DNA of 39,836 nucleotides from an uncultured bacterium. GTDB lineage: Bacteria; Patescibacteriota; Minisyncoccia; Phycocordibacterales; UBA5272. The stretch lies in NCBI GenBank assembly GCA_903875555.1, contig CAIQWN010000037.1, forward strand, positions 1 to 39,836, given 5' to 3'. The position numbers and the translations under genes were made by a program. The notes beneath the pieces were generated by a model, which was not told where the DNA came from, searched no databases, and saw only the letters and a program-made list of their open reading frames with translations. Below, piece by piece: positions 7,604-27,688 of this stretch (the first letter of the stretch is position 1; every line of letters starts with the position of its first letter).

Positions 7604-7636
7604 ATATACAATATACCACTTATAATTTTACACGCA

Positions 7637-7674
7637 AGGTCGGTTCTTGCCTTGGACCCAGCAAGAACCGACCT
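7637..7674. repeat. GC-rich hairpin family, copy 1 (14-bp perfect stem, 10-nt loop CTTGGACCCA)
   Basis: AGGTCGGTTCTTGC-CTTGGACCCA-GCAAGAACCGACCT. Confidence 0.75.
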
Positions 7675-7729
7675 AGTATTTCGATTTTGCATCTCACTAT
7701 TGGCTATACCCTAGTGGCTAATCCCTATT

Positions 7730-7834
7730 CTATATCTTCACCTCCGCACTCTGCTCCACAAGTTTCGTCGGAATCGCCACTGTAAAAGTAGATCCCTTTC
7801 CCCACTCTGACACTACAGAAATTTTTCCTTTGTT
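7730..7834 (-). pseudogene. Orphan histidine-kinase 3' end, copy a (last 34 codons plus stop)
   Basis: The reverse-strand translation NKGKISVVSEWGKGSTFTVAIPTKLVEQSAEVKI* aligns with the C-terminus of the HK at 10980-12632 (HKGKISVVSEWGKGSTFTVAVPTKL...). Confidence 0.8.
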
Positions 7835-7961
7835 CGTCGCATCTCAATGGACAGTACGTTCCCGATTTCTTAGATTGTAATCAATCTGTTGAAATTGCAA
7901 TGCTGTAAGTGCGACGCGAATTAGAAAATTCGTGGCTCGGCCATAAACTTTTGCAAAATCA
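7835..7961. repeat. Module M, copy 3: hairpin CGTCGCA...TGCGACG with a TCAATGGACA loop motif expanded by about 55 nt, plus the partial palindrome TTTTGCAAAATCA
   Basis: Alignment by eye to 9152-9196, which has the same orientation and the same abutment to an HK fragment. Confidence 0.55.
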
Positions 7962-7995
7962 ACCACTTCTTTACATATAAACTTTTTTACATCAA

Positions 7996-8004
7996 TGTTA
8001 TAAT
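7996..8004 (+). promoter_or_regulatory. Extended -10 TGTTATAAT, 6 nt upstream of ATG 8011
   Basis: Read directly from the sequence. Confidence 0.5.
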
Positions 8005-8010
8005 TTAAAT

Positions 8011-8619
8011 ATGATTATCGAAGTTGATGAATATAAAAAGAAAATACCAAACTACAACGCAGAAAAATCTGAAGATTTTCATCGTGAAAGTGCAAAACTT
8101 GCAGATAAAGATTTTATTAAACATCTTAAAACTAAAAAATATAAAAGAATTATTTTTATGGCTGGAGGCACAGCAAGTGGAAAGACTGAATATTCCACTT
8201 CATATTTAATAAACAAAGACCAGCTTGTTTATGACGGCACACTAAAAAACATAAATGGTTTTAATATAAAGTTAAAACACATAAACAAATATAGCAATGA
8301 AAGTAAAGTAAAAGTAGTTCTTATAATTCCGATTAATTTATCTACATCTTATAATGTGTTCCACGCGAGAGAAAGAAAAATGCGTGATGAAGTATTTTTT
8401 GAGACCCAAATTAAAAGCAAAGAAACTGTTGCTCAGATTTTGAGAGAAACAAAGATTAAAGTAGAAATATATTCTAGTGCATATGAAGAAAAAAAAGATA
8501 AACTATCTTTTAAAAGATTAACAGGCTCAAGAAATAGAAAAATGACAGCAAAACTTCTTGACTATCTCGCTAGTGAAATTAGAAATATTGCAAAAAGAAA
8601 CAACTTTACTATTAAGTAA
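8011..8619 (+). CDS. Zeta-toxin-family P-loop kinase-like protein
   Basis: 202 aa. Walker A is MAGGTASGKTE. HRESAKLADK lies upstream and DGTLKN downstream, in the same order as zeta/PezT family members. Confidence 0.6.
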   Translation: MIIEVDEYKKKIPNYNAEKSEDFHRESAKLADKDFIKHLKTKKYKRIIFMAGGTASGKTEYSTSYLINKDQLVYDGTLKNINGFNIKLKHINKYSNESKVKVVLIIPINLSTSYNVFHARERKMRDEVFFETQIKSKETVAQILRETKIKVEIYSSAYEEKKDKLSFKRLTGSRNRKMTAKLLDYLASEIRNIAKRNNFTIK

Positions 8620-8640
8620 AAAACAGTTAATATATAAATT

Positions 8641-8775
8641 ATGATAACAATACTCGGTGTTAAATTTCCAGTTTCTAAAAAAACCCTATATCCAAAAGAA
8701 ACAGAGGTTATTAGGTCATATATAGACGCAATCAAAAAAGGTAAAGGGAGTGCTGAAAGAAATCTTAAAATTTAA
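8641..8775 (+). CDS. Possible 44-aa ORF downstream of the zeta-like gene (MITILGVKFPVSKKTLYPKETEVIRSYIDAIKKGKGSAERNLKI)
   Basis: Manual translation. It starts 21 nt after the zeta-like stop and has no motif. Confidence 0.25.
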   Translation: MITILGVKFPVSKKTLYPKETEVIRSYIDAIKKGKGSAERNLKI

Positions 8776-8788
8776 TAAATTACAGTTA

Positions 8789-8853
8789 GGTCGTCAAATA
8801 AAATTTAAATCTGCAAGGTAAGACCTTGCAGAATTAAATTTTATTTGACGACC
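8789..8853. repeat. Long near-perfect palindrome (31-bp arms, one mismatch, 3-nt loop)
   Basis: GGTCGTCAAATAAAATTTAAATCTGCAAGGT-AAG-ACCTTGCAGAATTAAATTTTATTTGACGACC. The apex is a CTGCAAGG/CCTTGCAG unit that also occurs at 15065-15085 and in variant form at 16107-16125. Confidence 0.85.
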
Positions 8854-8945
8854 ACTCCCCGAATTAAAAAGTTAGAAATTGTTTAATCTATGAACGAGGT
8901 TTTAAATTTTAAATGTCTTGCGCAGTGTGACGACACGAGCAGAGC

Positions 8946-8989
8946 TGATTTTGCAAAATCACGTCGCACTGTGTCCATTAAAGTGCGAC
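8946..8989. repeat. Module M, copy 1: perfect 16-bp palindrome TGATTTTGCAAAATCA plus hairpin GTCGCACT-GTGTCCATTAA-AGTGCGAC
   Basis: Read directly from the sequence. It is inverted relative to copies 2 and 3. Confidence 0.65.
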
Positions 8990-9046
8990 CCAGCAGAAAA
9001 TTATGCGTGCATTTTAAATTTAAAACCGAGTGAACTTTTATGACTT

Positions 9047-9151
9047 TTACACTTTCACCTCCGCGCTCTGCTCCACCAACTTCGTCGGCACCGCCACCGT
9101 AAACGTAGACCCTTTTCCCCATTCTGAGACCACAGAAATTTTTCCTTTGTG
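9047..9151 (-). pseudogene. Orphan histidine-kinase 3' end, copy b (last 34 codons plus stop)
   Basis: The reverse-strand translation is HKGKISVVSEWGKGSTFTVAVPTKLVEQSAEVKV*. The roughly 60-nt core is nucleotide-identical to copy c. Confidence 0.8.
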
Positions 9152-9196
9152 CGTCGCGTTTCAATGGACATTACGCGACGTGATTTTGCAAAATCA
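9152..9196. repeat. Module M, copy 2: hairpin CGTCGCG-TTTCAATGGACATTA-CGCGACG plus the 16-bp palindrome TGATTTTGCAAAATCA
   Basis: Read directly from the sequence. It abuts HK fragment b. Confidence 0.65.
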
Positions 9197-9242
9197 ACCA
9201 CTTCTTCACATTCAGACTTTTTTACATCGCAGAATTAAATTT

Positions 9243-9974
9243 CTACCTAATATTATTTAATTCTTGATTACACTCAGCAGATACTCTTCCTTCTTTAAAA
9301 CAATTCAACACCTCGACTTTTTGTTCTGCATTAAAAATATTTTCTTTTAAATTAGTTGCACATCTTTGATAAATATAAAATCTTTTAAATAAATTAGAAT
9401 CCAATAATTCCGATAAAGTTTCTTCAATATTTCTGTAAGCTTCATCATGACTTTCTTTTTTTGTAAATCTTGCTGGGTATCCCAATCTTTTAAGTTCACT
9501 ATATCTGTAATCTAAACTTGCAAGAGATAATTCATAAGGTGTTGATATTGCAACAAGATTTATTTCGTAATCGTTATCTTTCAAATTCAAAGCGGTTTTC
9601 ATAGGAACTTCTTTTTTTCTCATTGTTCCTTCAACTATAAAATCTAAGCCCCTATTTATACATTCTTGAATTAACGATTCTACCCAGAAGTTACAAATAG
9701 CCTGTGTCATATCTGCTGCTTCTATATCATTCTCCTTTAAATAAAAATAATATTTAGGATGATAAGCCCTTAAATCATCTCCATTAATAAAAACAATATT
9801 TTTATTAATCTTTATTAATTCCCTAGCGAAAGCACTTTTACCACTACCAGGTTGACCACCTAAAATGAAGGCCTGTTTTATTTCTTGTGACAAAACACCA
9901 CTTGTCATCTGCGGAATTATCATTTCTTTAAAAATAGAAACTGCATCTTCTTGTGATATGTCAAAATTATTCAT
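9243..9974 (-). CDS. Zeta toxin family kinase (PezT/zeta-like)
   Basis: 243 aa. Walker A is ILGGQPGSGKSAF, with INGDDLR and VEGTMR motifs in the canonical order. Confidence 0.85.
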   Translation of the reverse strand: MNNFDISQEDAVSIFKEMIIPQMTSGVLSQEIKQAFILGGQPGSGKSAFARELIKINKNIVFINGDDLRAYHPKYYFYLKENDIEAADMTQAICNFWVESLIQECINRGLDFIVEGTMRKKEVPMKTALNLKDNDYEINLVAISTPYELSLASLDYRYSELKRLGYPARFTKKESHDEAYRNIEETLSELLDSNLFKRFYIYQRCATNLKENIFNAEQKVEVLNCFKEGRVSAECNQELNNIR

Positions 9975-10167
9975 ATTCTTTTAATTTTTTATCTATTACA
10001 CTTAATCTTTCCAAAAGAGAATTATATTCAAAAACATCTTCATAATAAACATTATGTCTTATAAATTGTAAATCATTGATCAAAATATTATCTTTAAAAT
10101 AAATAGCCTTACCTAAAAGAGTATTTATCATATTTAGTAATATTTCTATTTGTAAAACTTTATCCAT
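9967..10167 (-). CDS. Candidate epsilon-like antitoxin of the zeta toxin
   Basis: 66-aa helical ORF overlapping the zeta start by 8 nt, with TGGTATAGT-N6-ATG upstream. The assignment is by position only. Confidence 0.5.
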   Translation of the reverse strand: MDKVLQIEILLNMINTLLGKAIYFKDNILINDLQFIRHNVYYEDVFEYNSLLERLSVIDKKLKEYE

Positions 10168-10207
10168 AAATTTACTATACCATCAAAATATAAACTAGTC
10201 CATACTA

Positions 10208-10243
10208 GGTCGGTCCTTGCCTTGGACCCAGCAAGGACCGACC
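10208..10243. repeat. GC-rich hairpin family, copy 2 (13-bp stem, loop CTTGGACCCA)
   Basis: GGTCGGTCCTTGC-CTTGGACCCA-GCAAGGACCGACC. It lies 11 nt downstream (on the minus strand) of the stop of HK fragment c. Confidence 0.75.
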
Positions 10244-10254
10244 CCTCCACTCCA

Positions 10255-10464
10255 CTATTTTATTTTTCCTTCTTCCTTAATAAATACCTCCACATTCTCT
10301 TCCTTCAGTTTAGTTGGTACCGCCACCGTAAACGTAGACCCTTTTCCCCATTCTGAGACCACAGAAATTTTTCCTTTGTGTAATTCAACAACTTCTTTTA
10401 CGAAATACATACCAAGTCCGTTTCCAGAAATATTTGTTCCAACGCTTTCCTCTCTAGCGAACTT
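10255..10464 (-). pseudogene. Orphan histidine-kinase 3' end, copy c (last 69 codons plus stop, in frame, no internal lesions)
   Basis: The reverse-strand translation is KFAREESVGTNISGNGLGMYFVKEVVELHKGKISVVSEWGKGSTFTVAVPTKLKEENVEVFIKEEGKIK*. This is almost identical to the HK C-terminus, including the G2 box. There is no upstream coding continuation. Confidence 0.85.
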
Positions 10465-10530
10465 TTAATTTTCCTATTGCAAAAAAAAACTGTTGTGCTA
10501 TATTATATATATTAGGGCTTCGGCCTCCGA

Positions 10531-10554
10531 GAAAACCACCGCAAGGTGGTTTTC
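10531..10554 (-). terminator. Terminator hairpin downstream of the MazF-like gene
   Basis: The minus strand reads GAAAACCACC-TTGC-GGTGGTTTTC, with the T-run forming part of the 3' arm. Confidence 0.55.
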
Positions 10555-10564
10555 GATTCTTTAA

Positions 10565-10975
10565 CTAAATAAATTCTTTAATCTTATCTTTAATATTTTT
10601 AAAATCTCCTTTAGAAATATTTCCAACTTTTCTTAATAATCTTTTATTATCAATAACCTTAATTTGTGTTAACTTAACCCAAACTTTTTTATTCTTAATT
10701 TCATTATCTTTTTTTTCAAAAATATTTAACTCATAATGAAAATTATCGCTCTTCTTTTTGCTTGTAATAGGAACAACAAGCATAGATTCTTTATTGTATA
10801 CTTTCAATATCAAAACCGGCCTTTCAAAATTTTCATTCTTTCCATCAACTTCACTTCCTATATTAACCCCTAACGAACACCACCAAATTTCTCTTGGATA
10901 ACCAAAAACCAATCTCTCATTCCTGTTTATATTTTTCTTTTCGATATTCCATTTATCAAAATTCTTAATATGCAT
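10565..10975 (-). CDS. PemK/MazF-family toxin-like protein, solitary
   Basis: 136 aa. REIWWCSLGVNIGSEVDGKNENFERPVLILKVYNKESMLVVPITSKKK matches the long-form PemK/MazF pattern as I recall it. It starts 4 nt after the HK stop and has no antitoxin-sized ORF adjacent. Confidence 0.65.
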   Translation of the reverse strand: MHIKNFDKWNIEKKNINRNERLVFGYPREIWWCSLGVNIGSEVDGKNENFERPVLILKVYNKESMLVVPITSKKKSDNFHYELNIFEKKDNEIKNKKVWVKLTQIKVIDNKRLLRKVGNISKGDFKNIKDKIKEFI

Positions 10976-10979
10976 ATAT

Positions 10980-12632
10980 TTATTTTATCTTTCCCTCCTC
11001 CTTAATAAATACCTCCACATTCTCTTCCTTCAGTTTAGTTGGTACCGCCACCGTAAACGTAGACCCCTTTCCCCATTCTGAGACCACAGAGATTTTTCCT
11101 TTGTGAAGTTCCACAACCTCTTTTACGAAATACATACCCAGTCCGTTTCCAGAAATATTATTTACAACTTCTTCTTCTCGTGCGAACTTTTGATACAACT
11201 GTGTTTCGATAAATTTCTTTGACATTCCTCGCCCAGTGTCAGCAACATCCACCAAAATAAAGAATTCATTTCCATACAACTTTACTTTCACTCCGCCTTT
11301 CTCTGTATACTTAATCGAGTTATCAATCAAGTTCGCAAGCATATGGTCTAACTTCTCGTGGTCAAATACGATATCATAATTTAATCCTTCTTTGACTTCT
11401 AAATCAAGAGTAAGATTTTTCTTTTTTGCATTCGCTTCTTGTTCCGATACAATACTCTTCAATAACTCTTCAATATTATTTTTCTTAAACTCAACTTTTG
11501 TTTTCCCAGATTCGATACGAGAAATATCAAGAATAGAAGAAACGGTCTCGGCAAGAAGAACAGCATTATCATAAATTCTCCCCACTGGGTCATTCAACTT
11601 TTCTGGAAACTCACCATAAAGTCCCGTCTTAATCATCCCCACATAATTTCTAATAACCCCCGCCGGAGTTCGCAGTTGATGCGCCGCAATCGAAACGAAA
11701 TCATCCTTGTGTTTATCAAGTTCAATGAGTCTCGCATTAAGCCTAAACAATTCTTTATTCTTTCTTTTCATCTCATCATTAACCTGACTTTCTTTTTTAA
11801 CAGATTTAATCAAGAAAAAACCAAGTAAAATAGTTGTAATAAAAAATCCACCGTTTATAATATAATCTCTTTGATTTTCTGACAAAACAAATCTTGTAAA
11901 AAATAAAATAAACATTAAGAATGTCGCCATCTCTGTAGCAATAACCTTAACATTAAACAAGTTATATTTAAGTATCGCTCTAACAATAACTAAAGGAAAC
12001 AACGCAAACAAAATAATCGGGTAAGGTGGAAAATTTATATTAAAAGTTAAAAAGAAAACACTACCTCCACCAAGAAAACCAAAGGATGACGATATTAAAA
12101 TCTGTCTTAATTGTAAAGACTCTTTATGTCTGTCTAAATAAATAATTCTTTTGAATAAAATGAAGAGTGACAACATAGTCAGTAAAGCAAAATATAAAGC
12201 AAAAAATATGTATAAAGGACCTGCGTTTGGTGCATAATTAAAAACAAATTTATGAAAGACTCCTGTTACAAACAAAGAGCTATTAGCAATATAAACAAAG
12301 AATAAAGTTATTGGTGAAATAAAAAACCATATAATTTTTTTATAAACTAAATATGTTTTTGTTACATTTGAAATAAAAAGTAAAAAAAAGAAAGGTATAA
12401 AAGAAGCAGCGATATGAAGAACAACATTACTAATATAAGCAACATGTTCGGATACCGATATAATCATATACAAATATCCAAAACTCCATACAGAAGAACA
12501 GATATTTAATAATAGCCAACTAATACTTAAAATATTTTTTTTATTTGCCAAGAAAACAAACAGACCTGACAGAAAAGCAATAATTCCACCTAAAAAAAGA
12601 GCAACTGTATAATAATTTATAATCAATAACAT
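10980..12632 (-). CDS. Sensor histidine kinase with an N-terminal polytopic (about 7 TM) domain
   Basis: 550 aa. H-box SIAAHQLRTP, N-box NLIDNSIKYT, G1 DTGRGM, G2 GNGLGM. The N-terminal 270 aa are strongly hydrophobic. Confidence 0.9.
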   Translation of the reverse strand: MLLIINYYTVALFLGGIIAFLSGLFVFLANKKNILSISWLLLNICSSVWSFGYLYMIISVSEHVAYISNVVLHIAASFIPFFFLLFISNVTKTYLVYKKIIWFFISPITLFFVYIANSSLFVTGVFHKFVFNYAPNAGPLYIFFALYFALLTMLSLFILFKRIIYLDRHKESLQLRQILISSSFGFLGGGSVFFLTFNINFPPYPIILFALFPLVIVRAILKYNLFNVKVIATEMATFLMFILFFTRFVLSENQRDYIINGGFFITTILLGFFLIKSVKKESQVNDEMKRKNKELFRLNARLIELDKHKDDFVSIAAHQLRTPAGVIRNYVGMIKTGLYGEFPEKLNDPVGRIYDNAVLLAETVSSILDISRIESGKTKVEFKKNNIEELLKSIVSEQEANAKKKNLTLDLEVKEGLNYDIVFDHEKLDHMLANLIDNSIKYTEKGGVKVKLYGNEFFILVDVADTGRGMSKKFIETQLYQKFAREEEVVNNISGNGLGMYFVKEVVELHKGKISVVSEWGKGSTFTVAVPTKLKEENVEVFIKEEGKIK

Positions 12633-12634
12633 AA

Positions 12635-14278
12635 TTATTTATATAATCCAAGATATTTGTTTCCCAGCGAAGACATTTCCTTATTATTAATAAATAATAA
12701 AGCAAGATCGCTTATAGAATCAAAATTAATATTTGTCCCATGGTGCGGTTCTATATGTATATCTCCAATAAAATTTTTATTGGACTTAATAATTTCATTA
12801 AATAAATTTAGTTTTCCGTCTAGTGCATATATCGCTGACTGCGGAGAAGAACATGCAACGTGAGGATTATTAATTCCGTGAACAAACACACCCTCAGGTA
12901 TAAAACTTGGATTTATATATCCGTGCCAATGTGCTAAAGCAGATCCTTTTGTTGTTACTTTTTTAACATACTCCTTTTGTGTTTTTATATGATTAAAAAT
13001 AGAAGATAGAATAGCATTACCAACAGCGTGTGACAATATAACCTTTGTATCAAACGACGGTTTATAATCATCATCTAATATCAATCCGCTTGGCGCCTGT
13101 AAAAACATCTCTCCATTTTTTAAACCTATTTTTACTAAGTCTTTTTCTGGTTTTATATGTGTTTTATCTGAACCAGATCTCTGAGTCATAACCCAAACCT
13201 CTGGAACTTTCATATAAAAATTTTCTCCTTCTATTTCCACAATAATAAAAAGGTCTTCTCCAACATAAAACCAATCTCTATTAGAAACATCCAACCCTAA
13301 AATATTTTTTATATCAGTAACAGGAAATAATTCTGATATTTTTATTGGTATCTGCCATGCTAAAAACCCATAACTCATACCATTTCTATTATCTAAATGT
13401 AATTTACCTATCCATCTATAAAAATTATTTCTAAATGGTAAACTGTCTATTTTTTTTCCTTGTGGATACAATTGTGTCTGATCAAATAATTTACCACCTT
13501 CGACAAATTCTTTTATTATTTCTCTATAAGAAATGTCATTAATATTAAACTTATTATCCATAACAATAAATTCTGATAGTTTATATGGTCTTATAGGTGC
13601 AACAACCTTAGGAATAACAGCTTCTAATAAATGTTGTTTTAATTTACCATCATTTAAATTATATATGGGATGTGAGGCGTTAAAATTATACACAACAAAT
13701 TTTTCATCATCTACACCAATAACAATATTCGTCATGTGGTGAGCAAACATATCCATCGCTGTATTAAAATGTTCATGAAAATCGCTATCTCGTTTAATGT
13801 TTTTAGGAAAATCAAGAATTGTTATAACTGATGTATCTTTAAAACTCAAAGTGTTGTCCATAGGTAAATTTCCTATCTCGGACTCACCCAATGAAATTAT
13901 TGATATACCTGGTCTTACCCTATCCCTCTTAAATAGAGTATTTAAGAATACTTGAAATGTTACATAAAATAATTTTTCTTTATTTGTAAATAAATTATTA
14001 TATAAAACATAAAGATTTCGACCAAAAATTAAAAAACAGCGTTTTATTGCCTTATACACAGATATATGTTTTAAAGATTTTTCATAAGGTATAACATTAA
14101 CACCTAATTCTTTTAATTTTAATTCAACTTCTTTATAAAAACTTAAAACATTTAAACTTACTTCTGTCTCTTTAAAAGGAAACATAGTAACACTCATAAA
14201 CTTAGCCATATCATTATGACTAAGTGGAACTGTTTCTTTTATACCAATAATTTTATTTAATGCTTCTTGACTTAACAT
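12635..14278 (-). CDS. Uncharacterised 547-aa protein, co-transcribed with the kinase
   Basis: Long clean ORF whose stop is 2 nt from the HK start. No family was recognised. The C-terminal third is His-rich (SHAVGN, ALAHWHGY, HVACSSP, HIEPHHGTN). Confidence 0.7.
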   Translation of the reverse strand: MLSQEALNKIIGIKETVPLSHNDMAKFMSVTMFPFKETEVSLNVLSFYKEVELKLKELGVNVIPYEKSLKHISVYKAIKRCFLIFGRNLYVLYNNLFTNKEKLFYVTFQVFLNTLFKRDRVRPGISIISLGESEIGNLPMDNTLSFKDTSVITILDFPKNIKRDSDFHEHFNTAMDMFAHHMTNIVIGVDDEKFVVYNFNASHPIYNLNDGKLKQHLLEAVIPKVVAPIRPYKLSEFIVMDNKFNINDISYREIIKEFVEGGKLFDQTQLYPQGKKIDSLPFRNNFYRWIGKLHLDNRNGMSYGFLAWQIPIKISELFPVTDIKNILGLDVSNRDWFYVGEDLFIIVEIEGENFYMKVPEVWVMTQRSGSDKTHIKPEKDLVKIGLKNGEMFLQAPSGLILDDDYKPSFDTKVILSHAVGNAILSSIFNHIKTQKEYVKKVTTKGSALAHWHGYINPSFIPEGVFVHGINNPHVACSSPQSAIYALDGKLNLFNEIIKSNKNFIGDIHIEPHHGTNINFDSISDLALLFINNKEMSSLGNKYLGLYK

Positions 14279-14311: not shown

Positions 14312-14956
14312 TTATAAATTATACACTACTTCCATAACTTTTATCGCATTCTTTTTAAATTCTCCTTTTTCTAAATCTTTTGGATATATCGGTTTACCAA
14401 AAATTACTTTGATTTTTCCTTTCCCAAAAAAGAATTTAAACAGTGTCATATCTTTCGTTCCTGAAATAAAAGTAGGCACAATAACACTTTCTGTTGCTTC
14501 AGCTAAATATCCCACTCCACCTTTTGCCTCTCTTAAAGTTCCATCTTTATTAATCTTTCCCTCTGGAAAAATACAAACAGACTTCCCTTTTCTTAAAAAG
14601 ATTAGATGGTACGGTAACGCAAAAGCATAGTCGTGATGTCCTGGGTATGCTGGATACGCCCCCCATAATCTAAAGAAAAAACCTCCGTAAAAAATTCTTT
14701 TCAGTACGGTGTTATTATAAAATTCTTTTTCTCGCGACACATAATACATTGGCCTTAACTCAGAAAAAAAAGGCACAGCACCAGTTACAACTATTGGGTC
14801 GAGTTCTCCAAAATGATTAGAAGCAAAAATTATTCCTCTACTTTTACTTTCCAAACCTTTTAGGTTTTTCAAACCTTTCACTTTAAAATCCACAAACAAA
14901 CCAAAAACAAACCTCATAAAAGGCCAAGAGATACTTTGTAATATAAAAGGAATCAT
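14312..14956 (-). CDS. plsC: 1-acyl-sn-glycerol-3-phosphate acyltransferase family protein (PlsC-like)
   Basis: 214 aa. The H(X)4D motif is in ASNHFGELD and FPEG in CIFPEGKINKDG. TGGTATTAT-N6-ATG lies upstream. Confidence 0.85.
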   Translation of the reverse strand: MIPFILQSISWPFMRFVFGLFVDFKVKGLKNLKGLESKSRGIIFASNHFGELDPIVVTGAVPFFSELRPMYYVSREKEFYNNTVLKRIFYGGFFFRLWGAYPAYPGHHDYAFALPYHLIFLRKGKSVCIFPEGKINKDGTLREAKGGVGYLAEATESVIVPTFISGTKDMTLFKFFFGKGKIKVIFGKPIYPKDLEKGEFKKNAIKVMEVVYNL

Positions 14957-15137
14957 TTAAATATAATACCACGAAAATAAATTTAATATTTGTGTCAACA
15001 AGTTTTACATATCATTTACAGGTCAGCTCTGTATGTCTAGTTCCTTCCTAGACATTTAATTTCTCTGCAAGGTCTTGCCTTGCAGAATTGTTTTTAAGAG
15101 GGTCGGTCATTGCTGGGCCCGTGGCAATGACCGACCC
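14957..15137. repeat. Unit A: plsC upstream region carrying three hairpins; duplicated at 15992-16206
   Basis: Shared with unit A': TATAATACCACGAAAATAAATTT, an ATGTCTAG...CTAGACAT hairpin, a CTGCAAGG-TCTTG-CCTTGCAG hairpin (present in variant form in A'), AATTGTTTTTAA, and a GC-rich hairpin. Confidence 0.65.
15100..15137. repeat. GC-rich hairpin family, copy 3 (14-bp stem, loop TGGGCCCGTG)
   Basis: GGGTCGGTCATTGC-TGGGCCCGTG-GCAATGACCGACCC. Confidence 0.75.
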
Positions 15138-15215
15138 ATAATTTTTACCAAACACAAACACCAAATTTAAATTTGACTTATTTTTTAATAAATATATAAT
15201 ATAAACATAACTACG

Positions 15216-15257
15216 AAAAAGACCCTTATGCGGGTAAGTCCGCATCGGGGGCTTTTT
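15216..15257 (-). terminator. Terminator downstream of the NYN gene
   Basis: The minus strand reads AAAAAGCCCCCGATGCGG-ACTTA-CCGCATAAGGGTCTTTTTC. The stem is imperfect and is followed by a T-run. Confidence 0.55.
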
Positions 15258-15261
15258 CATT

Positions 15262-15768
15262 TTAAATCATTATTTTCTCTAAAATATTTCTTTGATTTTT
15301 TAGATAAGAAATTTTTGCACCTGTTCGTTTCAGTAAAATAGAACACTTTTCTTCTGTCGATGGCGACAGTATTACTTTTAATTTATTTTTTTCTATCAAA
15401 AAATTTACTAATGAAGCATAATCTCCATCACTAGAAACAAGCAAAGCATTATCATATACGTTCTCATAAAAATCCTGAACTGTTTTAAGAACTAGATCAG
15501 CGTCACAGTTCCCCTTTGCTTTACCATTACCATCATAAACAACCTCTTTGAAGATAATTTTATAACCCGCTTCTTGTAAATGAGTATAAAGATTATTATA
15601 TTTTGGAATATTTCCTAAAAATATATACGCTTCGGTTACTGAATATTTTTCTGTAAGCCAAATACGAAATTTTTTATAATCTAGTTCCCACTTTAGATAA
15701 GTTATTACACCTTGATGAAGATTCGCTCCGTCTATAAAAGCATAATTATTTTCTTTAGTTTTATTCAT
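15262..15768 (-). CDS. NYN (LabA/DUF88-like) domain protein, predicted RNase fold
   Basis: 168 aa. YAFIDGANLHQG at the N-terminus and CDADL...LVSSDGDY match NYN/PIN-like acidic motifs. TGATATAAT-N6-ATG lies upstream. Confidence 0.75.
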   Translation of the reverse strand: MNKTKENNYAFIDGANLHQGVITYLKWELDYKKFRIWLTEKYSVTEAYIFLGNIPKYNNLYTHLQEAGYKIIFKEVVYDGNGKAKGNCDADLVLKTVQDFYENVYDNALLVSSDGDYASLVNFLIEKNKLKVILSPSTEEKCSILLKRTGAKISYLKNQRNILEKIMI

Positions 15769-15783
15769 ACAAATATTATATCA

Positions 15784-15991
15784 CCACATTTAAAAACACC
15801 TTTCTAATTTTTCTAAATTCCTCAAACCTTTAACTTTAAAATCAACAAACACCACTTCGCGATTACGCTTCGCGGTGCACGGCAAAGAAAAAAGGTTCGA
15901 GGAAGTGAAGAACAACGAAGATACAGCGAGTAGCAACGAGCGGTATACACAAAATGAAGAACAAACTCTGTGTCAGCCAATGAATTATCAT
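15784..15991 (-). pseudogene. Orphan plsC-type 5' end, copy B (own promoter and ATG, premature stop, frameshift)
   Basis: TGGTATTAT-N6-ATG is at 15991. The translation MIIHWLTQSLFFILCIPLVATRCIFVVLHFLEPFFFAVHREA* is followed, out of frame, by FVDFKVKGLRNLEKLER. Compare real PlsC: MIPFILQSIS...FVDFKVKGLKNLKGLES. Confidence 0.65.
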
Positions 15992-16206
15992 TTTATTATA
16001 ATACCACGAAAATAAATTTTCCGTTTCTGTCTAGGCCCTTCCTAGACATTATATTTTTTGTAAGGATTTTTCTGGCAAGGCAAGACCTTGCCATTCGCAA
16101 TCTTTGGCAAGGTCTTGCCTTGCAGAATTGTTTTTAAAAAAGAGAGGTCGGCCGATGAATCAATTAACAGGTCGGTCATTGCTGGACCCAAGGCAATGAC
16201 CGACCT
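15992..16206. repeat. Unit A': second copy of the plsC upstream region, with extra inserted hairpins
   Basis: Alignment by eye to 14957-15137. It also contains TGGCAAGG-CAAGA-CCTTGCCA and a partial GGTCGGCC. Confidence 0.65.
16169..16206. repeat. GC-rich hairpin family, copy 4 (14-bp stem, loop TGGACCCAAG)
   Basis: AGGTCGGTCATTGC-TGGACCCAAG-GCAATGACCGACCT. Confidence 0.75.
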
Positions 16207-16331
16207 CTATGTTTTTATTGTCCACACCGACATCTTGCTTTTTTATACAAAAAAATGTAGTGTATACATATGCCTGTGGGCGAAAGCCTTGTTCGGATAA
16301 GAGATCTCTAAGCCGAAGAACAGGCATAATT

Positions 16332-16359
16332 AAAAAAACATCTTTCGAGATGTTTTTTT
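16332..16359 (-). terminator. Bidirectional A/T-flanked terminator hairpin downstream of ORF 16363-16776
   Basis: AAAAAAACATCT-TTCG-AGATGTTTTTTT. Confidence 0.7.
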
Positions 16360-16362
16360 AAT

Positions 16363-16776
16363 TTATTTCTTCAATTTCATAATACTCCAAAAAATAATTT
16401 TACCATTACCTGTTCTCTTCAAAACAACCTTAACTTTTACATCTCTGTTTTTACCAACATTTGCAACAAGTGACCAAAATTCTACATCTTTTTGAACAGC
16501 TCCTTTCTTACGATTTTTTGGTTGCTTATCTTTTTTATACTCATCTATTTTTTCAGCACATTTCAATACTGGCACAGCAAGTGGTATTAATTTTAATTTA
16601 AAAATTCTTTCCTTAAGCAACCTCGCTGTTCCTCCACCATCATATTCCATATGATGAAAGCCTTGTGCATTAAAAACTACTTCTGAATTTAAACAAGGAC
16701 AATACACACCACCTATCTTGTCATATATTTCCCGTGCATTATTTTTAAAAAAATCCAAATCGTCTTTTTCACTCAT
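16363..16776 (-). CDS. Hypothetical 137-aa protein (cassette gene)
   Basis: Clean ORF with TGATATAAT-N6-ATG upstream and its own terminator. No family was recognised. The C-terminal half is Lys-rich. Confidence 0.55.
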   Translation of the reverse strand: MSEKDDLDFFKNNAREIYDKIGGVYCPCLNSEVVFNAQGFHHMEYDGGGTARLLKERIFKLKLIPLAVPVLKCAEKIDEYKKDKQPKNRKKGAVQKDVEFWSLVANVGKNRDVKVKVVLKRTGNGKIIFWSIMKLKK

Positions 16777-16788
16777 AAAATAATTATA

Positions 16789-16865
16789 TCACCACATTTA
16801 AAAACCCATTTCCAATTTTTCTAAATTTCTCAAGCATTTAACTTTAAAATAAAGACAAATCTTTT
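16789..16865 (-). pseudogene. Orphan plsC-type 5' fragment, copy B' (decayed)
   Basis: The minus strand reads TTTATTTTAAAGTTAAATGCTTGAGAAATTTAGAAAAATTGGAAATGGGTTTTTAAATGTGGTGATATAAT. This is near-identical to the junction of copy B and contains in-frame stops. Confidence 0.55.
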
Positions 16866-16938
16866 TGACTCCTCGACTCAAAAATATAAAAGATTACTTT
16901 TATATTTCACTCATCTTACGTCGCCAATCAACAAACAA

Positions 16939-17877
16939 TTATTTAACAGACTCAATAAGTAAACTCATCAACTCTTTCATTTCATATCCACAAACTTTTG
17001 CTTGCTGTGGAATAAACGAAGTCTTTGTCATACCAGGAACAGTGTTTATTTCAAGTACATATAATTTATCATCTCTTAAGATCATATCTGTTCGTGAAAT
17101 TGATCTACATCCCAAAACCTTATGACACCGTACTACTGTTTCTTTTATTCTATTCATTAAATCATTACCTACTTCTGCTGGTGTAACTTCTATACAACCA
17201 CCTTGTGTATATTTTGCTTCATAATCAAAAAGTTCACCTTTTGTTAAAACAACCTCAGAGGCAACAAGTGGTGTCGCAACGTTATTTATCTCAATAACCC
17301 CACAAGTAAACTCCCTACCTTTCACAAATTCCTGTGCGAGTAATTCATTATGATTTTCAAAAATTTTATTTAAAGAATTTTTATATTCTTCTTCATTGTT
17401 TAATTTAAACAAATCAACAGACGACCCTTCATCAACTGGCTTAACAATAATTGGAAAATTAAACGGCACAGAAAAATCATTTTTATTTATAATTTTACTT
17501 TGCGGAATGTTTATTTCGTTTTCTTGTAAAACTTTATTAGTTTTATTTTTATCAATAGTCAGTCTTGAAACTTCTGATGAATGTCCGACAAACTTTATCC
17601 CTGCTTTTTCTAATTTTTCTTGAAGCTCTCCATCTTCACCGTATTCTCCGTGAATAATTGGAAAAACAACATCTATATTTATATTTTTAATTTCATTTAT
17701 TCCGTCTTCTTCGTTAAAAATTTCTTCACCAATCTTATATTTTTTATTTTTATCGACAAAAATTTCTAAAACATCAAATTTTTCTCGATCTATATTTTCT
17801 AAAATATTTTTCGCAGAAGAAACAGACACTTCATGCTCACTTCCTGGGCCTCCATAAATTATCGCAACTTTTTTCAT
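16939..17877 (-). CDS. ddl: D-alanine--D-alanine ligase
   Basis: 312 aa. The N-terminus is KVAIIYGGPGSEHEVSVSSAKNI, with an ATP-grasp body and the C-terminal motif LEINTVPGMT. Confidence 0.9.
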   Translation of the reverse strand: MKKVAIIYGGPGSEHEVSVSSAKNILENIDREKFDVLEIFVDKNKKYKIGEEIFNEEDGINEIKNINIDVVFPIIHGEYGEDGELQEKLEKAGIKFVGHSSEVSRLTIDKNKTNKVLQENEINIPQSKIINKNDFSVPFNFPIIVKPVDEGSSVDLFKLNNEEEYKNSLNKIFENHNELLAQEFVKGREFTCGVIEINNVATPLVASEVVLTKGELFDYEAKYTQGGCIEVTPAEVGNDLMNRIKETVVRCHKVLGCRSISRTDMILRDDKLYVLEINTVPGMTKTSFIPQQAKVCGYEMKELMSLLIESVK

Positions 17878-18227
17878 TTTAATTTTGTAAATTTAATTTC
17901 TGTAAAATCTTTATGTTGCTTATCGGTGTCACCTTTTTCATCTTTTATACAACTTGTTCCCCTGCATAAATCTGGTCTATTTTCATAATCTAAACATTTT
18001 CCTGTGTTTTTATCATAATTTATACAATCAAAAGTAGCAACTCTAACTTTTTCCTCCATACCTTCTGGCGAAATTATTTCATCTCTTTCTTTCCATAAAT
18101 CACCACCGTTTTTATCTTTTGGTAATTCCAAACCATTGACAATTGCTCTTTGATTAATTTTTACAGGATTACAACAAAAACTACAATTCTTATCTTCGCA
18201 CGGAGCATGTTTATTAAAACTTTCCAT
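17874..18227 (-). CDS. YkgJ-family cysteine-cluster (CxxCxxCC-type) protein
   Basis: C-rich motifs CEDKNCSFCCNP and CINYDKNTGKCLDYENRPDLCR. The track start at 18233 is a GTG. ATG 18227 sits exactly 6 nt below TGATATAAT and is preferred. There is a 4-nt overlap with ddl. Confidence 0.7.
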   Translation of the reverse strand: MESFNKHAPCEDKNCSFCCNPVKINQRAIVNGLELPKDKNGGDLWKERDEIISPEGMEEKVRVATFDCINYDKNTGKCLDYENRPDLCRGTSCIKDEKGDTDKQHKDFTEIKFTKLK

Positions 18228-18242
18228 AAACACATTATATCA

Positions 18243-18410
18243 CTTCTCCAGCCTATAAACCCTTTCACTTTGAAATCAACAAATAAAAAGAAGAGAGGTT
18301 CGAGAAAGCGATGAGCTCGACGAAGCGAAGAACGAGGAAGATATCCGAAGTTGGCAAACTGAGGATACGAAGAGAATGTTTGGAGTAGCAATGATCGGTA
18401 TAAAAAAATA
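18243..18410 (-). pseudogene. Orphan plsC-type 5' fragment, copy B'' (lacks the start; truncated by the RND terminator)
   Basis: The minus-strand frame reads ...RFLEPLFFLFVDFKVKGF. TATACCGATCATTGCTACT matches TATACCGCTCGTTGCTACT of copy B. Confidence 0.55.
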
Positions 18411-18441
18411 AAAAAACTGCCCCAAAAAATCATGGGGCAGC
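18411..18441 (-). terminator. Rho-independent terminator overlapping the RND gene stop
   Basis: The minus strand reads CTGCCCC-ATGATTTTTT-GGGGCAG followed by TTTTTTTATTTTTTT. Confidence 0.7.
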
Positions 18442-20736
18442 CTTGCGCACACAATGCGCGAGTAACGCGGGCATTACTACGAGGGTTCCTATTGCTGAGA
18501 AAGCAAGTACTACTATCAGCAGAACACCCATATTGTGCACCGGTTGAAAAATTGAAAAGCAAAGCGGGAAGAAAATGGACATATTGATTACCATATCCTC
18601 CAAAATAACCTTACCTTCTAATTTCACTGAAAGAACAACTGCGTTTGCAACTTCTTCACCTTTAACCAACAACTTTTGAAACCTGTTGGTAAAGTAAATC
18701 GCAAAGTCTATCGAAGCGTTGATTGCCATTGCTCCGATAACAGCAGTAGAAATGTCGAGTGGAATATCCGCAAGCACCATAAAAATCACAATGCAAGCAG
18801 ATGCAAACAGAAATGGTACAGACATCACGATACCACCTCTTATCGCGCCAAGTTTTTGCTTTCGCACTTTGTAGCCAGTCCAGAAAATCCAGATAGCCGT
18901 AAGCACAATCACACTCACCTGACTCGTGATCACATTCATCGGTTTACCAAGCACGACATATTCGTCGATACTTGGATACTGTGCAAGCTTACCAAATAGT
19001 GAGACCTTGAGTTTCGGGAAATCCTTGCGAATTTCTACAATCGAATCACGCAGTTCTCTCATCGAGATACTACTTTCTGCAGAAGACGACACCGACAAGC
19101 GATAACCTCTTTCATTCCACAAGACTTCTTTGAACGGATTTAAATACAAACCGAACTCCGCATTTAATTGATCAAGCTCTTTTTGACTTGTTGGAAATTC
19201 CTTACCGAACTTCTCACGAAGTGCGCCTTGCAACATATTCGGCACACCGTATACTTCACGTGCGTTTTTTGCTTTGTGCAAAGATTTCATAAGTCTGAGA
19301 GTTTCGTTAAACCTCTCAAGTTCCGACACATCTTCACTTCCTGCTTCCACAAAAAGTTCAATTGTATCAAAGCCAGGGTTTTGCCCATAACTCATAAAAC
19401 CTGCGGTTCTGTATACAAGCGTGTCTTTGATGTAATCGCCTGGCACACTCTTGATCACAAGATCTCCTTGATAAATCATTGCCCCAGATATTAAAAGAGG
19501 AACAACAAGAAGAAACAAAGCAACTTTGAAACTCGCAAGCTTCATCTTCATCAATTCATCGTCTTCGTTTTTACCTTGCACTGGTGTGAACCTATACAAA
19601 ACAGGAACAAGATAAACAGAAATCAGATAAAGATTAACGACTCCACAAGCCGATATAATACCAAGCTCGCGAATAGCAAGAACTTCAAATGACCACAGCG
19701 TGATGAATCCGAAGAAACTAATGACGCAGGTGATACCGATAAGTGATTTAACTTTTTTGAGAGCGTCATCCCAATTGCCATACTTGTTGTATGACTTAAA
19801 GAGATGAAGAGAAAATGAAACCCCTTGTACGATACAGTTGGTATAAGCCAACAGCACATACACCCTCTCTCTCATCGAAAAACCCAAAACGTCGAGCAAT
19901 CCAATCTCGCCACGCATCCACACTACACTTAACAAAACAATACACAATGTGGAGAACAACGATTGCGAAACAGACCCAAGAAAGAAAATAAAAAGCACGG
20001 TAGAAATAATCATACCAATAGTTACAGTTTTCAAGATGTCGGCATTAAGCGCGCCATCAATCAAACCGCGACCCATTATCCAACCCGACACCATTAATGC
20101 TGTGTCCCTAGGTTCAATATCACTTTTTATAAACCATTCAAGCGCAGAGATTTCGCGATCTTCCAAAACTTCAACAACACTGCGGAAAACTTCGACTTCG
20201 TCTGCGCCCTGCTTAGGATACAATGCGAAAATTACAAATCCTGCATCTGCTCTGCCGATCAAACTACTAACACTCGGATTGTGAGAAACAAATTCTCCCC
20301 ACGACAAAGTATTAACTACATACTGCGGACCGTCTTCATATTTTGAACGATACAGCTGACTTCTTGTATTTGTACAACTTTCAATTTTGAAATCTTTACC
20401 ACGACCACCGTAGCACGGAACGTTAACAATACTAACAACAGTCGCATCTTTTAGTTTAGGAGGCGTAACCAATTTTTTATGAAAGGCTTCCACCTCCTTA
20501 AGCTCAGATTCCAACGAATCGGAACCCTCAACGCTGATGAGTTGTCTAATCAAATAAACAGCCTCATCGCTGTGCAATACTTTATGCACATAGCGATCTT
20601 CATTCAGAAAAATATCTTCTTCATTTAGAATCGCACCATCGAGTACTCCACCTTTTTTCGTCCAATACACATTACTCCACAGAAGGAGTGCTGTGCAGAG
20701 AACGAACAAGATCCCAACAAAAATTCTCTTGAACAT
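18430..20736 (-). CDS. RND-superfamily / MMPL-like membrane exporter
   Basis: 768 aa with two hydrophobic 5-6 helix bundles, each preceded by a large soluble loop. It has an AAGGAG Shine-Dalgarno 7 nt upstream of the ATG, unlike most genes here. The call rests on topology. Confidence 0.6.
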   Translation of the reverse strand: MFKRIFVGILFVLCTALLLWSNVYWTKKGGVLDGAILNEEDIFLNEDRYVHKVLHSDEAVYLIRQLISVEGSDSLESELKEVEAFHKKLVTPPKLKDATVVSIVNVPCYGGRGKDFKIESCTNTRSQLYRSKYEDGPQYVVNTLSWGEFVSHNPSVSSLIGRADAGFVIFALYPKQGADEVEVFRSVVEVLEDREISALEWFIKSDIEPRDTALMVSGWIMGRGLIDGALNADILKTVTIGMIISTVLFIFFLGSVSQSLFSTLCIVLLSVVWMRGEIGLLDVLGFSMRERVYVLLAYTNCIVQGVSFSLHLFKSYNKYGNWDDALKKVKSLIGITCVISFFGFITLWSFEVLAIRELGIISACGVVNLYLISVYLVPVLYRFTPVQGKNEDDELMKMKLASFKVALFLLVVPLLISGAMIYQGDLVIKSVPGDYIKDTLVYRTAGFMSYGQNPGFDTIELFVEAGSEDVSELERFNETLRLMKSLHKAKNAREVYGVPNMLQGALREKFGKEFPTSQKELDQLNAEFGLYLNPFKEVLWNERGYRLSVSSSAESSISMRELRDSIVEIRKDFPKLKVSLFGKLAQYPSIDEYVVLGKPMNVITSQVSVIVLTAIWIFWTGYKVRKQKLGAIRGGIVMSVPFLFASACIVIFMVLADIPLDISTAVIGAMAINASIDFAIYFTNRFQKLLVKGEEVANAVVLSVKLEGKVILEDMVINMSIFFPLCFSIFQPVHNMGVLLIVVLAFSAIGTLVVMPALLAHCVRKAAP

Positions 20737-27649: not shown

Positions 27650-27688
27650 TTCATAAGGTTTATAAAGTTTGTAAAGTTCATAAAGTAA
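27650..27688. repeat. Left inverted repeat flanking the four-helix-bundle gene (TTCATAAGGTT plus TATAAAG/TAAAG iterations)
   Basis: TTCATAAGGTTTATAAAGTTTGTAAAGTTCATAAAG. Its reverse complement matches 28080-28146. Confidence 0.6.

Follow-up and report, generated by a model that had tools for sequence, protein, structure and literature searches.

Partial plsC copies at a probable two-sided insertion hot spot around a plsC-histidine kinase operon

The window, that is, the whole 39,836-nt stretch of DNA that was analysed, contains fragments of plsC ahead of an NYN gene, a 137-aa gene and the gene pair ykgJ-ddl. The best reading of the locus is a two-sided hot spot, with the fragments as scars left when cassettes were inserted additively and rearranged, and not as a plsC-derived promoter module. 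On this reading, which was given a probability of roughly 60%, the fragments are dead stumps, duplicated plsC 5' ends left by successive insertions and rearrangements at a recombination hot spot directly upstream of a conserved operon of plsC, a 547-aa gene and a histidine-kinase (HK) gene. A sequence-only reading of the same DNA had offered two explanations. Insertion near one roughly constant point within the 5' end of plsC, with every gene bringing its own promoter, is supported in part; the spread of a promoter module was judged improbable. The observation is real but fairly ordinary, and the host genome is tiny and of Parcubacteria type.

The features described here are on the minus strand. 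Intact plsC (14312..14956; 214 aa; Pfam Acyltransferase, E 5e-14) has a type-1 N-terminus (MIPFILQSISWPFMRFVFGLFVDFKVKG) and its own predicted leaderless promoter, TGGTATTAT-N6-ATG (14954-14971); its identity is 83% to L090, 68% to L084 and only 61% to L091. With up to three mismatches, the plsC core GATTTTAAAGTKAAAGGTTTG occurs four times in the window, always on the minus strand (14870-14890, 15823-15843, 16831-16851 and 18257-18277), against a chance expectation of 0.03. A repeat search of the window returned a 52-nt family at 14847-14898 (core copy A, inside intact plsC), 15800-15851, 16808-16859 and 18234-18285, the last three being 79, 69 and 63% identical to the intact gene. The four 5' cores are those of the intact gene and three stumps, confirming that plsC-type fragments precede the NYN gene, the 137-aa gene and ykgJ-ddl. 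Each stump is followed by GTGATATAAT-N6-ATG. Direct repeats of the plsC core (TTTGTTGATTTYAAAGTKAAAGG) bracket each inserted segment (ykgJ-ddl, the 137-aa LPD3-like gene and the NYN gene), and the inner end of the array is the sole place with a working plsC, together with its own promoter and upstream hairpins.

Stump B (15793..15991) is, by three-frame translation, a composite plsC pseudogene. It comprises an ATG and 14 codons of type-2 plsC (15950-15991) with a start that matches L091 (MIVIHLLSQSLFYIL), a GC-rich piece X (15911-15949; 50% GC for the part containing X), an FLEPFFF segment (15881-15910), a 31-nt palindromic insert (15850-15880) and the core FVDFKVKGLRNLEKLERCF (15793-15849), which matches P0001, P0005 and P0007. 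Stump B' (16801..16938) has a split core: TTGTTTGTTGATT immediately after the ddl stop codon (16926-16938), a 74-nt insert (16852-16925) and the remaining core YFKVKCLRNLEKLEMGF (16801-16851). Stump C (18260..18433) starts in an ATGA overlap between its ATG and the MMPL stop codon (18417-18433), and its frame is open from that ATG through a GC-rich piece X (18308-18402; 47% GC) to FLEPLFFLFVDFKVKG (18260-18307). The core translations read FVDFKVKGLRNLEKLERCF-stop in B, YFKVKCLRNLEKLEMGF-stop in B' and FLEPLFFLFVDFKVKG in C. The 10-mer TTTGTTGATT has only three occurrences in the window, one in stump C, one right behind the ddl stop codon and one in stump B. Frame breaks and extra inserts are found in B, B' and C. 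The allele types of the stumps differ from that of the resident gene: the start of B is L091-like type 2 and C is L086-like type 2, whereas intact plsC is type 1. Because of the core identity of 63-79%, this type-2 affinity and the composition of the X pieces (47-50% GC versus 32% for the window), the stumps are no recent copies of the resident plsC.

A mirror array lies at the other end of the operon (7630..11194; repeat families D1, D2 and D11). In addition to the intact HK 3' end (10981-11194), it contains HK 3' stumps at 10256-10469, 9045-9175 (within a block at 9045-9228) and 7728-7858 (within a block at 7728-7993), all of which begin near QKFAREEE in the alignment. Interleaved with these stumps are PemK, a 66aa+zeta pair, a second zeta toxin and HicB (Pfam PemK, Zeta_toxin and HicB). 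Cassettes differ among relatives at both operon ends. Upstream of plsC, L084 has four small genes, PemK among them, and L091 has 69aa+zeta; downstream, L084 carries a zeta cassette with a 35-nt HK 3' repeat on its flanks. PemK and zeta homologs are on opposite sides of the operon in different genomes. The ancestral order is known since it can be read from L086 (M10 / plsC-MT-HK-ykgJ-ddl / RR, with no cassettes), L104 (HK-Y1 transposase-ykgJ-ddl) and L101 (HK-PemK pseudogene-ddl). No plsC 5' stumps turned up in the hot spots of the relatives examined, and the plsC-side array is to date known from this lineage only.

The NYN cassette (15215..15783; Pfam NYN, E 5e-15) consists of a predicted promoter, TGATATAAT-N6-ATG (15766-15783), the gene (15262-15768) and a terminator (15215-15257); PADLOC gave a weak LabA-like NYN match. 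The exact NYN protein is present in three other metagenome contigs, with breaks at 15814/15852 and at 15175-15213. The 137-aa cassette (16331..16791) has the same layout, with promoter TGATATAAT-N6-ATG (16774-16791), gene (16363-16776) and terminator (16331-16359). Its protein has a weak Pfam LPD3 match (E 1e-4, below the curated cut-off) and belongs to a family of 607 representatives, stand-alone proteins of about 120-160 aa, with LPD3 matched in 12 of 40 aligned members. The MMPL/RND transporter region (18403..20736; Pfam MMPL, NCBIfam HAE3) comprises the gene proper (18430-20736) and a terminator-like hairpin at its end (18403-18444), and is a compositional outlier at 41% GC versus 32% for the window. 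MMPL is absent between M10 and plsC in L084, L086 and L091. The more distant relative L105 has a same-strand MMPL gene upstream of plsC-MT-HK; its plsC shares an ATGA with the stop codon of the gene before it, just as stump C does with MMPL.

The ykgJ-ddl segment (16939..18242; Pfam CxxCxxCC and Dala_Dala_lig), composed of ykgJ (17874-18227) and ddl (16939-17877), is a relocated core gene pair and not accessory cargo or a typical cassette. Its orthologs in L086 are 64% and 70% identical, similar to other core genes. Since ddl is downstream of HK in three relatives, with ykgJ preceding it in two of them, the pair has moved in the window.

Under the insertion reading, DNA segments would have integrated additively, either by way of a circular intermediate that recombined at the plsC core (site-specifically or by short homology) or through a single crossover with DNA of related strains. 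With each incoming segment, a replacement plsC 5' end would have arrived or been kept, and the older one would have been displaced outward. Stump C would then represent the original plsC 5' end, from a gene that once followed MMPL, and B and B' would trace back to a single older junction through its later duplication. Fixed-point insertion is favoured by the innermost position of intact plsC, the other allele types of the stumps and the location of the outermost stump at the MMPL ATGA overlap. Because B, B' and C hold extra inserts and frame breaks, the order of events is not reconstructable. Duplication of a promoter-bearing junction in B and B' is not predicted by a simple insertion model. 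Also counted against that model were the lack of a visible recombinase, the lack of plsC stumps in relatives, the core nature of ykgJ-ddl and two joins seen in this contig only. Nowhere does the 39.8-kb window encode an integrase, a transposase or another recombinase.

An alternative without mobile cassettes is that the whole plsC...HK-ykgJ-ddl block was duplicated in tandem and that the copies then decayed and underwent differential deletions, with the stumps as leftovers. This possibility, judged unlikely but the strongest of the rivals, draws on the positions of ykgJ-ddl, PemK and zeta, which are mutual circular permutations, exactly as a duplication would give; ykgJ-ddl, for example, is downstream of HK in relatives versus upstream of plsC in the window. 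Duplication of the block does not fit the stumps, which represent other plsC allele types with GC unlike the resident gene, nor their strict polarity, with 5' stumps only upstream and 3' stumps only downstream. No plsC-5'/HK-3' deletion joints were found among the repeat families of the window or in the hot spots of relatives. Moreover, the NYN, 137-aa and MMPL genes are not in the loci of relatives, and the B and B' junctions end at the same point.

Copying of a plsC 5'-derived promoter module ahead of other genes, including the essential ddl, so as to drive them, was considered improbable. It would explain why two unrelated genes are preceded by an 87-nt stretch, 86% identical between B and B', that extends from the plsC core through the -10 box, and why GTGATATAAT-N6-ATG is perfect at all three junctions. 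The claim of a shared junction is borne out for B and B' but not for C, in which the distance from the FKVKG core to the -10 box is 18 nt versus 43 nt; a duplicated promoter-bearing junction is real for B and B' only. Their common stretch runs about 25-30 nt past recognisable plsC homology, -10 box included, and this -10 region resembles plsC codons no more than expected by chance. Scans for the plsC core followed by TGATATAAT gave chance matches only across the metagenome and no matches among viruses.

The spacing that had been noted, a -10 box and exactly 6 nt before the ATG, is indeed perfect ahead of NYN, 137-aa and ykgJ, and these are the only three perfect TGATATAAT-N6-ATG matches in the window. 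Allowing one mismatch gives 9 matches, several at other gene starts. At 18 of the 41 ORF starts in the window, a TATAAT with at least 5 of 6 matches lies 5-8 nt upstream, and 10 of those 18, plsC itself included, have TGn and exactly N6. Leaderless genes whose extended -10 promoter lies 6-7 nt ahead of the start codon are known from Actinobacteria, Deinococcus and others. Here, likewise, TGnTAnAAT ends 6 nt before the ATG, too close for a Shine-Dalgarno sequence to fit between, and many operon-first genes in the window show this arrangement; unlike mapped leaderless genes, it is read from sequence only. TGnTAnAAT-N6-ATG thus appears to be a generic leaderless promoter and the standard start architecture of this genome, which weakens the promoter-module reading, and transcription of each gene would start at or beside its ATG. 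As far as the -10/N6/ATG part is concerned, such a general pattern is what the sequence-only reading had named as refuting its view.

The ykgJ-ddl promoter (TGATATAAT-GTGTTT-ATG; 18225-18242) bears on the same question. L086 has TGTTATAAT-GTGTCT-ATGGAA straight after the HK stop codon and L104 has TGATATAAT-TATTAT-ATGGAA after the Y1 transposase, in both cases without a plsC fragment. TGnTATAAT-N6-ATGGAA is kept despite these different upstream neighbours, with the promoter, most of its N6 and the first codons conserved. Because L086 and L104 keep the same promoter without the plsC piece, it is native to ykgJ and ancestrally inherited. The position of ddl behind one copy, once taken to favour module spread, loses its force, as ykgJ-ddl brings its own promoter. 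For ykgJ-ddl, module spread is already refuted by the relatives.

A chimeric assembly path through repeats common to co-occurring strains is very improbable. In its favour, contigs of other assemblies end at the B/B' junction and immediately ahead of unit A, L101, a related strain with a different arrangement, is in the same samples, and the joins ddl/B'/137aa and NYN/unit A/plsC are present in this contig only. Against it, 137aa-A'-B-NYN is spanned by an independent assembly (L081) at 99.9% identity, M10-MMPL-C-ykgJ-ddl by a second with identical spacing, and the repeats, with longest identical blocks of about 22-31 nt, are too diverged for mis-joining at usual k-mer sizes.

The insertion hot spot has parallels in known systems, such as build-up at att sites and additive genomic islands. 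Integrative elements and their decayed derivatives (CIMEs) can accumulate in tandem where a protein-coding or tRNA gene ends, as with ICESt1 and ICESt3 at the fda 3' end (PMC5704250). As there, a functional target gene is retained at one array end, older elements are shifted outward and decay, and toxin-antitoxin genes are common cargo. Unlike there, the array and its surroundings lack an integrase or any other recombinase, each unit is about the size of one gene (0.6-1.4 kb), the targets are a gene's 5' end on one side of the operon and another gene's 3' end on the opposite side, and one "cassette" is the relocated pair ykgJ-ddl. Additive flexible genomic islands, and tycheposon-type islands in which partial tRNA repeats are scattered (PMC4898812; bioRxiv 10.1101/2020.12.28.424599), similarly have a fixed chromosomal hot spot with different cassette combinations in related genomes, partial target copies marking older integrations, zeta-toxin cassettes common to several lineages and streamlined hosts with few classical mobile elements. 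The targets here are ends of protein-coding genes instead of tRNA genes, there is no sign of a tyrosine recombinase, and the host is a Parcubacteria/Campbellbacteria-like CPR bacterium. Like integron cassette arrays, the locus lines up small single-gene units in one direction at a fixed site and has palindromes close to some of the unit boundaries. In contrast to integrons, IntI is absent, the genes carry promoters of their own, gene-end duplications form the unit boundaries, and the palindromes are perfect GC-rich hairpins from the region upstream of plsC rather than attC sites marking every cassette end.

These hairpins form unit A (14957..15146; repeat families D4 and D7), three GC-rich palindromes upstream of plsC: GTCTAGG..CCTAGAC, CTGCAAGG..CCTTGCAG and GGGTCGGTC..GACCGACCC. 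On the plus strand they score as terminator-like, a hairpin followed by a T run, and the plsC upstream region of L084 is, as judged by eye, homologous to the unit A region. Unit A' (15992..16215; alignment and repeat families D4, D7 and D12) had been described as a duplicate of unit A, and so it proved: it is 74% identical overall, diverged but with near-identical blocks and extra palindromes, and has the same plsC-type promoter, TGGTATTAT-N6-ATG (15989-16006).

Genomes of the CPR/Patescibacteria are tiny and usually called poor in mobile elements, so accessory-gene gain and shuffling in these bacteria are poorly understood. The locus analysed here is a two-sided cassette hot spot in a CPR genome, with gene-end stumps and without a visible recombinase. 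It is compact: defence and toxin-antitoxin genes (PemK, zeta, HicB, NYN and an LPD3-like protein, with Thoeris nearby) gather between stumps of the flanking core genes, and an essential cell-wall gene pair has become involved in the rearrangements with its promoter retained.

The minus strand carries every gene of the plsC-side region. Read 5′ to 3′, it begins with an MMPL transporter gene (20736..18430), followed by a plsC 5′ stump (C, 18433..18260), ykgJ (18227..17874), ddl (17877..16939), a second stump (B′, 16938..16801), a 137-aa gene with its own terminator (16776..16363), a hairpin unit with a plsC-type promoter and ATG (A′, 16215..15989), a third stump (B, 15991..15793), an NYN gene with its own terminator (15768..15262), another hairpin unit (A, 15146..14957) and the intact plsC (14956..14312). 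The intact plsC encodes 214 aa with an Acyltransferase domain (Pfam) and has full-length homologs, whose source-given protein names point to Campbellbacteria-like Parcubacteria. On the same strand follow a gene for a 547-aa protein without a known domain (12635-14278) and an intact 7TM histidine kinase gene (HK, 12632..10980; 550 aa). The 547-aa protein has no Pfam, NCBIfam or PADLOC match. It is 79% identical to its counterpart in the comparison locus L091 (2522-4165) and replaces the methyltransferase(s) found between plsC and HK in four other comparison loci (L084, L086, L092 and L105).

The repetition described in the sequence-only reading was borne out, with one exception. The plsC core motif occurs in four minus-strand copies, against 0.03 expected, within a 52-nt repeat family that is 79, 69 and 63% identical to the intact gene. 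Without mismatch, TGATATAAT-N6-ATG is found at exactly three sites, the gene starts claimed (NYN, 137-aa gene and ykgJ-ddl), and alignment showed that A′ is a diverged duplicate of A (74% identity over the whole alignment, nearly identical in some blocks, and with TGGTATTAT-N6-ATG as promoter in both). The claim that all three genes follow the same junction held for B and B′, which have 87 nt in common at 86% identity, reaching through the −10 box, but not for C, where the distance from FKVKG to the −10 box is 18 nt rather than 43. B and B′ must go back to a single junction, duplicated along with the −10 box and ~25-30 nt that are not plsC sequence. TTTGTTGATT, the core's left half, is confined to three places: stump C, the position immediately following the ddl stop codon, and stump B. 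Core sequence therefore lies on both sides of the ykgJ-ddl segment, just as it does for the 137-aa and NYN segments. Compared with plsC codons (SRGIIF) from which it might have mutated, the B/B′ −10 box gave a collinear match of 18-19/32, no better than at the best random plsC-gene positions. Scanning metagenomes for the plsC core followed by TGATATAAT gave eight matches, all due to chance and inside unrelated genes, and a viral scan gave none.

The −10/N6/ATG part of the junction, read earlier as part of a shared module, proved instead to be a general consensus, an outcome named beforehand as counting against that claim. At up to one mismatch, TGATATAAT-N6-ATG has nine matches in the window, several of them at other gene starts. 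A TATAAT-like hexamer (5 or 6/6 positions) lies 5-8 nt upstream of 18 of the 41 first-ATG ORF starts, and ten of these 18 combine TGn with spacing of exactly 6 nt: plsC, the genes at 3238, 7603, 8011, 20918, 22842 and 27722, and the three junction genes. The window thus contains starts of the leaderless extended −10 kind, with TGn and a hexamer ~6-7 nt before the start and without a Shine-Dalgarno sequence. The same arrangement precedes PemK, the zeta antitoxin and ykgJ in relatives. Since it recurs at gene starts in the window and in relatives, the −10/N6/ATG part of the junction is attributed to a lineage default: TGnTAnAAT-N6-ATG is the predicted default leaderless start architecture of this lineage. 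Such a default helps gene calling and the weighing of similar “shared promoter” observations.

Evidence on the origin of the ykgJ promoter came from three comparison loci. L086 (GCA_023267535.1), whose plsC is 61% identical to that of the window, has the order M10 | plsC-MT-HK-ykgJ-ddl | RR, where MT is a methyltransferase and RR a response regulator; its ykgJ is preceded by TGTTATAAT-GTGTCT-ATGGAA, 17 nt past the HK stop codon. L104 (ddl 76% identical) has the order HK - Y1 transposase - ykgJ-ddl, with TGATATAAT-TATTAT-ATGGAA before ykgJ, and L101 (ddl 85% identical) has HK - PemK pseudogene - ddl. The ykgJ upstream regions (n=3) are alignable from about −20 on, regardless of the sequence further upstream, and identity to L086 is 64% for the window ykgJ and 70% for ddl, in line with other core genes. 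Taken together, the relatives' gene order, the conserved upstream region and the core-like identity indicate that ykgJ-ddl is an orthologous core pair that left its place downstream of HK for one upstream of plsC, keeping its own promoter; the plsC stump before it happens to lie there. The proposal that the ykgJ promoter arrived with a plsC module is contradicted by its conservation in L086 and L104 without any plsC fragment. With a native promoter, the main argument for spread of a promoter module falls, leaving without support the view that one plsC-derived promoter junction drives three genes, ddl among them.

The stumps themselves differ in allele type. The clade has two plsC N-terminal types, type 1 (SWPFMRFVFGLF; window, L084 and L090) and type 2 (SLFFILKPFFYLF; L086, L091 and L092). 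The intact window plsC is type 1, 83% identical to L090 and only 61% to L091, whereas identity to L091 is 79% for the neighbouring 547-aa gene and 76% for HK, so the locus is a mosaic. Stump B opens like L091 (MIIHWLTQSLFFIL); after this come piece X, which is GC-rich, a second FLEPFFF segment, a palindromic insert of 31 nt and finally the core, with frames broken. Stump C, which has piece X in common with B, reads RFLEPLFFLFVDFKVKG, type-2-like; followed back, its frame stays open as far as an ATG in ATGA overlap with the stop codon of MMPL. In the more distant L105, with the order DnaK-MMPL-DnaJ-SSF-plsC-MT-HK, the overlap of plsC with its upstream neighbour is also ATGA. GC content is 41% in MMPL and 47-50% in the X pieces, against 32% in the window. 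Given this overlap, the L105 order, the type-2-like reading and the GC content, stump C looks like what is left, in place, of a plsC formerly downstream of MMPL rather than like a module delivered to ddl. L084, L086 and L091 lack the MMPL/RND gene (18430-20736) at this position, and even its closest homolog reaches just 49% identity; horizontal acquisition of the gene, along with stump C, is probable.

No plsC 5′ stumps were found in the relatives' loci examined. Rfam searches at gathering thresholds, plus a permissive search of 14800-18500, returned nothing credible, and there are no tRNA or tmRNA genes; these empty searches show the stumps to be neither a tRNA-type att site nor any known RNA element. 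A diversity-generating retroelement or silent-cassette gene conversion was likewise rejected, with no reverse transcriptase in the window and with copies that consist of catalytic-domain and N-terminal segments in broken frames. GAAGTGGT and GTTGATTTT each occur only in stump B and in stumps 2 and 3 of HK, but a link between these stumps was discarded because local alignment scores fell inside the shuffle range.

At the opposite end of the same operon, a mirror of the plsC 5′ array is formed by the HK 3′ end. Its final ~70 codons (10981-11194) have three further copies downstream, with core matches at 10256-10469 (91%), 9045-9175 and 7728-7858, making four copies in all, each starting near QKFAREEE. 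Between the copies in this array (7630-11194) lie PemK, a 66-aa gene with a zeta toxin, a second zeta toxin and HicB (Pfam), and beyond it are a Thoeris system and a methylase. In L084, a 35-nt HK 3′ repeat flanks a 76aa-63aa-zeta cassette, and four small genes, PemK among them, lie upstream of plsC; L091 has 69aa+zeta upstream of plsC. Cassettes that precede plsC in one genome thus have homologs that follow HK in another, both sites are empty in L086, and L084 and L091 are filled differently. Comparison of these loci indicates a cassette hot spot at either end of the plsC...HK unit in the clade. Inserted cassettes go together with a duplicated gene end at HK in two genomes, and at plsC in this genome only. 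The Thoeris-type cluster (4215-6115) encodes ThsB TIR, ThsA Macro and ThsB TIR, and the response regulator after it marks where the variable region ends on the right, a boundary that is conserved. In L101, the closest ddl relative, the PemK pseudogene between HK and ddl (3540-3950) has in-frame stops and the same terminator and 3′ flank as the L084 PemK cassette.

The polar stumps, the intact inner gene, the roughly fixed inner boundaries and the foreign allele type fit additive integration, in which incoming DNA would bear a copy of the target gene end and displace the older end outward. Upstream stumps are 5′ only and downstream stumps 3′ only, with the intact gene at the inner end. The reaction could be site-specific at the core, or single-crossover or short-homology recombination with DNA of a related strain; the former would make the locus a new integration platform for the phylum, the latter, as homologous or illegitimate recombination between strains, a clear but ordinary additive island. 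Tandem duplication of the whole block with later deletions would account for ykgJ-ddl, PemK and zeta lying at circularly permuted positions, but leaves the allele types, GC content and polarity of the stumps unexplained. An assembly chimera is unlikely, since 137aa-A′-B-NYN was recovered in one independent assembly and M10-MMPL-C-ykgJ-ddl in a second, two other joins being found in this contig alone. The strain is present in samples ERZ18648719, ERZ18648440, ERZ27313442 and ERZ1426684.

Additive integration places the locus among known architectures, of which the hot spot is a variant. The same displacement logic underlies accretion of integrative elements and CIMEs (PMC5704250), additive flexible genomic islands (PMC4898812) and islands with scattered partial tRNA repeats (bioRxiv 10.1101/2020.12.28.424599). 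As in CIME accretion, there are repeated gene-end copies (four of the plsC core, four of the HK 3′ end), intact target genes (plsC and HK) kept at the array end, and empty (L086) or differently filled (L084, L091) sites in relatives; unlike it, no integrase or recombinase lies in or beside the array within the window, and by Pfam none of the 40 substantial window ORFs encodes an integrase, transposase or resolvase. The locus also differs from an integron, with no integrase in the window, a −10 box for every gene, no hairpin after ddl, and hairpins that are perfect palindromes in common with the plsC upstream region.

A bolder proposal, that the locus is an integrase-independent, integron-like capture platform of CPR bacteria served by a recombinase encoded elsewhere, is improbable, at roughly one chance in ten. 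Transcript-sized leaderless units, from ATG/transcription start to terminator, would be inserted site-specifically at a ~23-nt core within the plsC 5′ end, with a second core in the HK 3′ end. The candidate enzyme would be, for example, a Y1/RAYT-type protein like that at this locus in L104 or a housekeeping tyrosine recombinase, and essential genes such as ddl could also be shuffled through the platform.

The cargo was examined at the protein level. The NYN product is a LabA-like NYN nuclease domain protein, and the 137-aa protein falls in a large, functionally uncharacterised family of stand-alone LPD3-like proteins. For the latter, AlphaFold on the single sequence gave an unusable model (pLDDT 37), and a profile search of the PDB returned nothing. 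A search of viral contigs found relatives of neither protein. A plsC scan of the GTDB genome collection gave relatives at ≤31% identity, mostly Prochlorococcus, with no usable synteny.

GC-rich perfect palindromes of the families GGTCGGTC..GACCGACC, CTGCAAGG..CCTTGCAG and GTCTAGG..CCTAGAC occur at 7638-7683, 8789-8853, 10208-10253, 15033-15146 and 16028-16215 in this 32% GC genome. They may be REP-like elements; the window has no Y1 gene of the REP/RAYT kind. Those in units A and A′ have T runs on the plus strand and are terminator-like, facing against the genes. In L104, a Y1 (IS200/RAYT-like) transposase gene (1780-2610) lies exactly between HK and ykgJ, the same interval as is rearranged in the window, with the palindrome TACATAGGGGNCCCCTATGTA flanking the gene in three copies. 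A small module, TGATTTTGCAAAA followed by the hairpin CGTCGCG..GTCCATTGA..CGCGACG, is present in three copies, one inverted (7840-7966, 8946-8992 and 9150-9196), inside or adjoining HK stumps 2 and 3. Between the terminator of the 137-aa gene and unit A′, ~100 nt (16235-16330) fold into a stable branched hairpin (−28.9 kcal/mol, z −3.8) with no Rfam match. The left end of the window (992-3958) is mobile-element-like, with an HTH protein, a ParB_N-DNA methylase fusion and an S24/LexA-like peptidase, and no recombinase was found there. At 27722-28066, a homolog of the 23S rRNA intervening-sequence protein (PF05635) is flanked by 32-nt inverted repeats (27655-27686 and 28115-28146) and adjoins a large glycosyltransferase/methyltransferase cluster.
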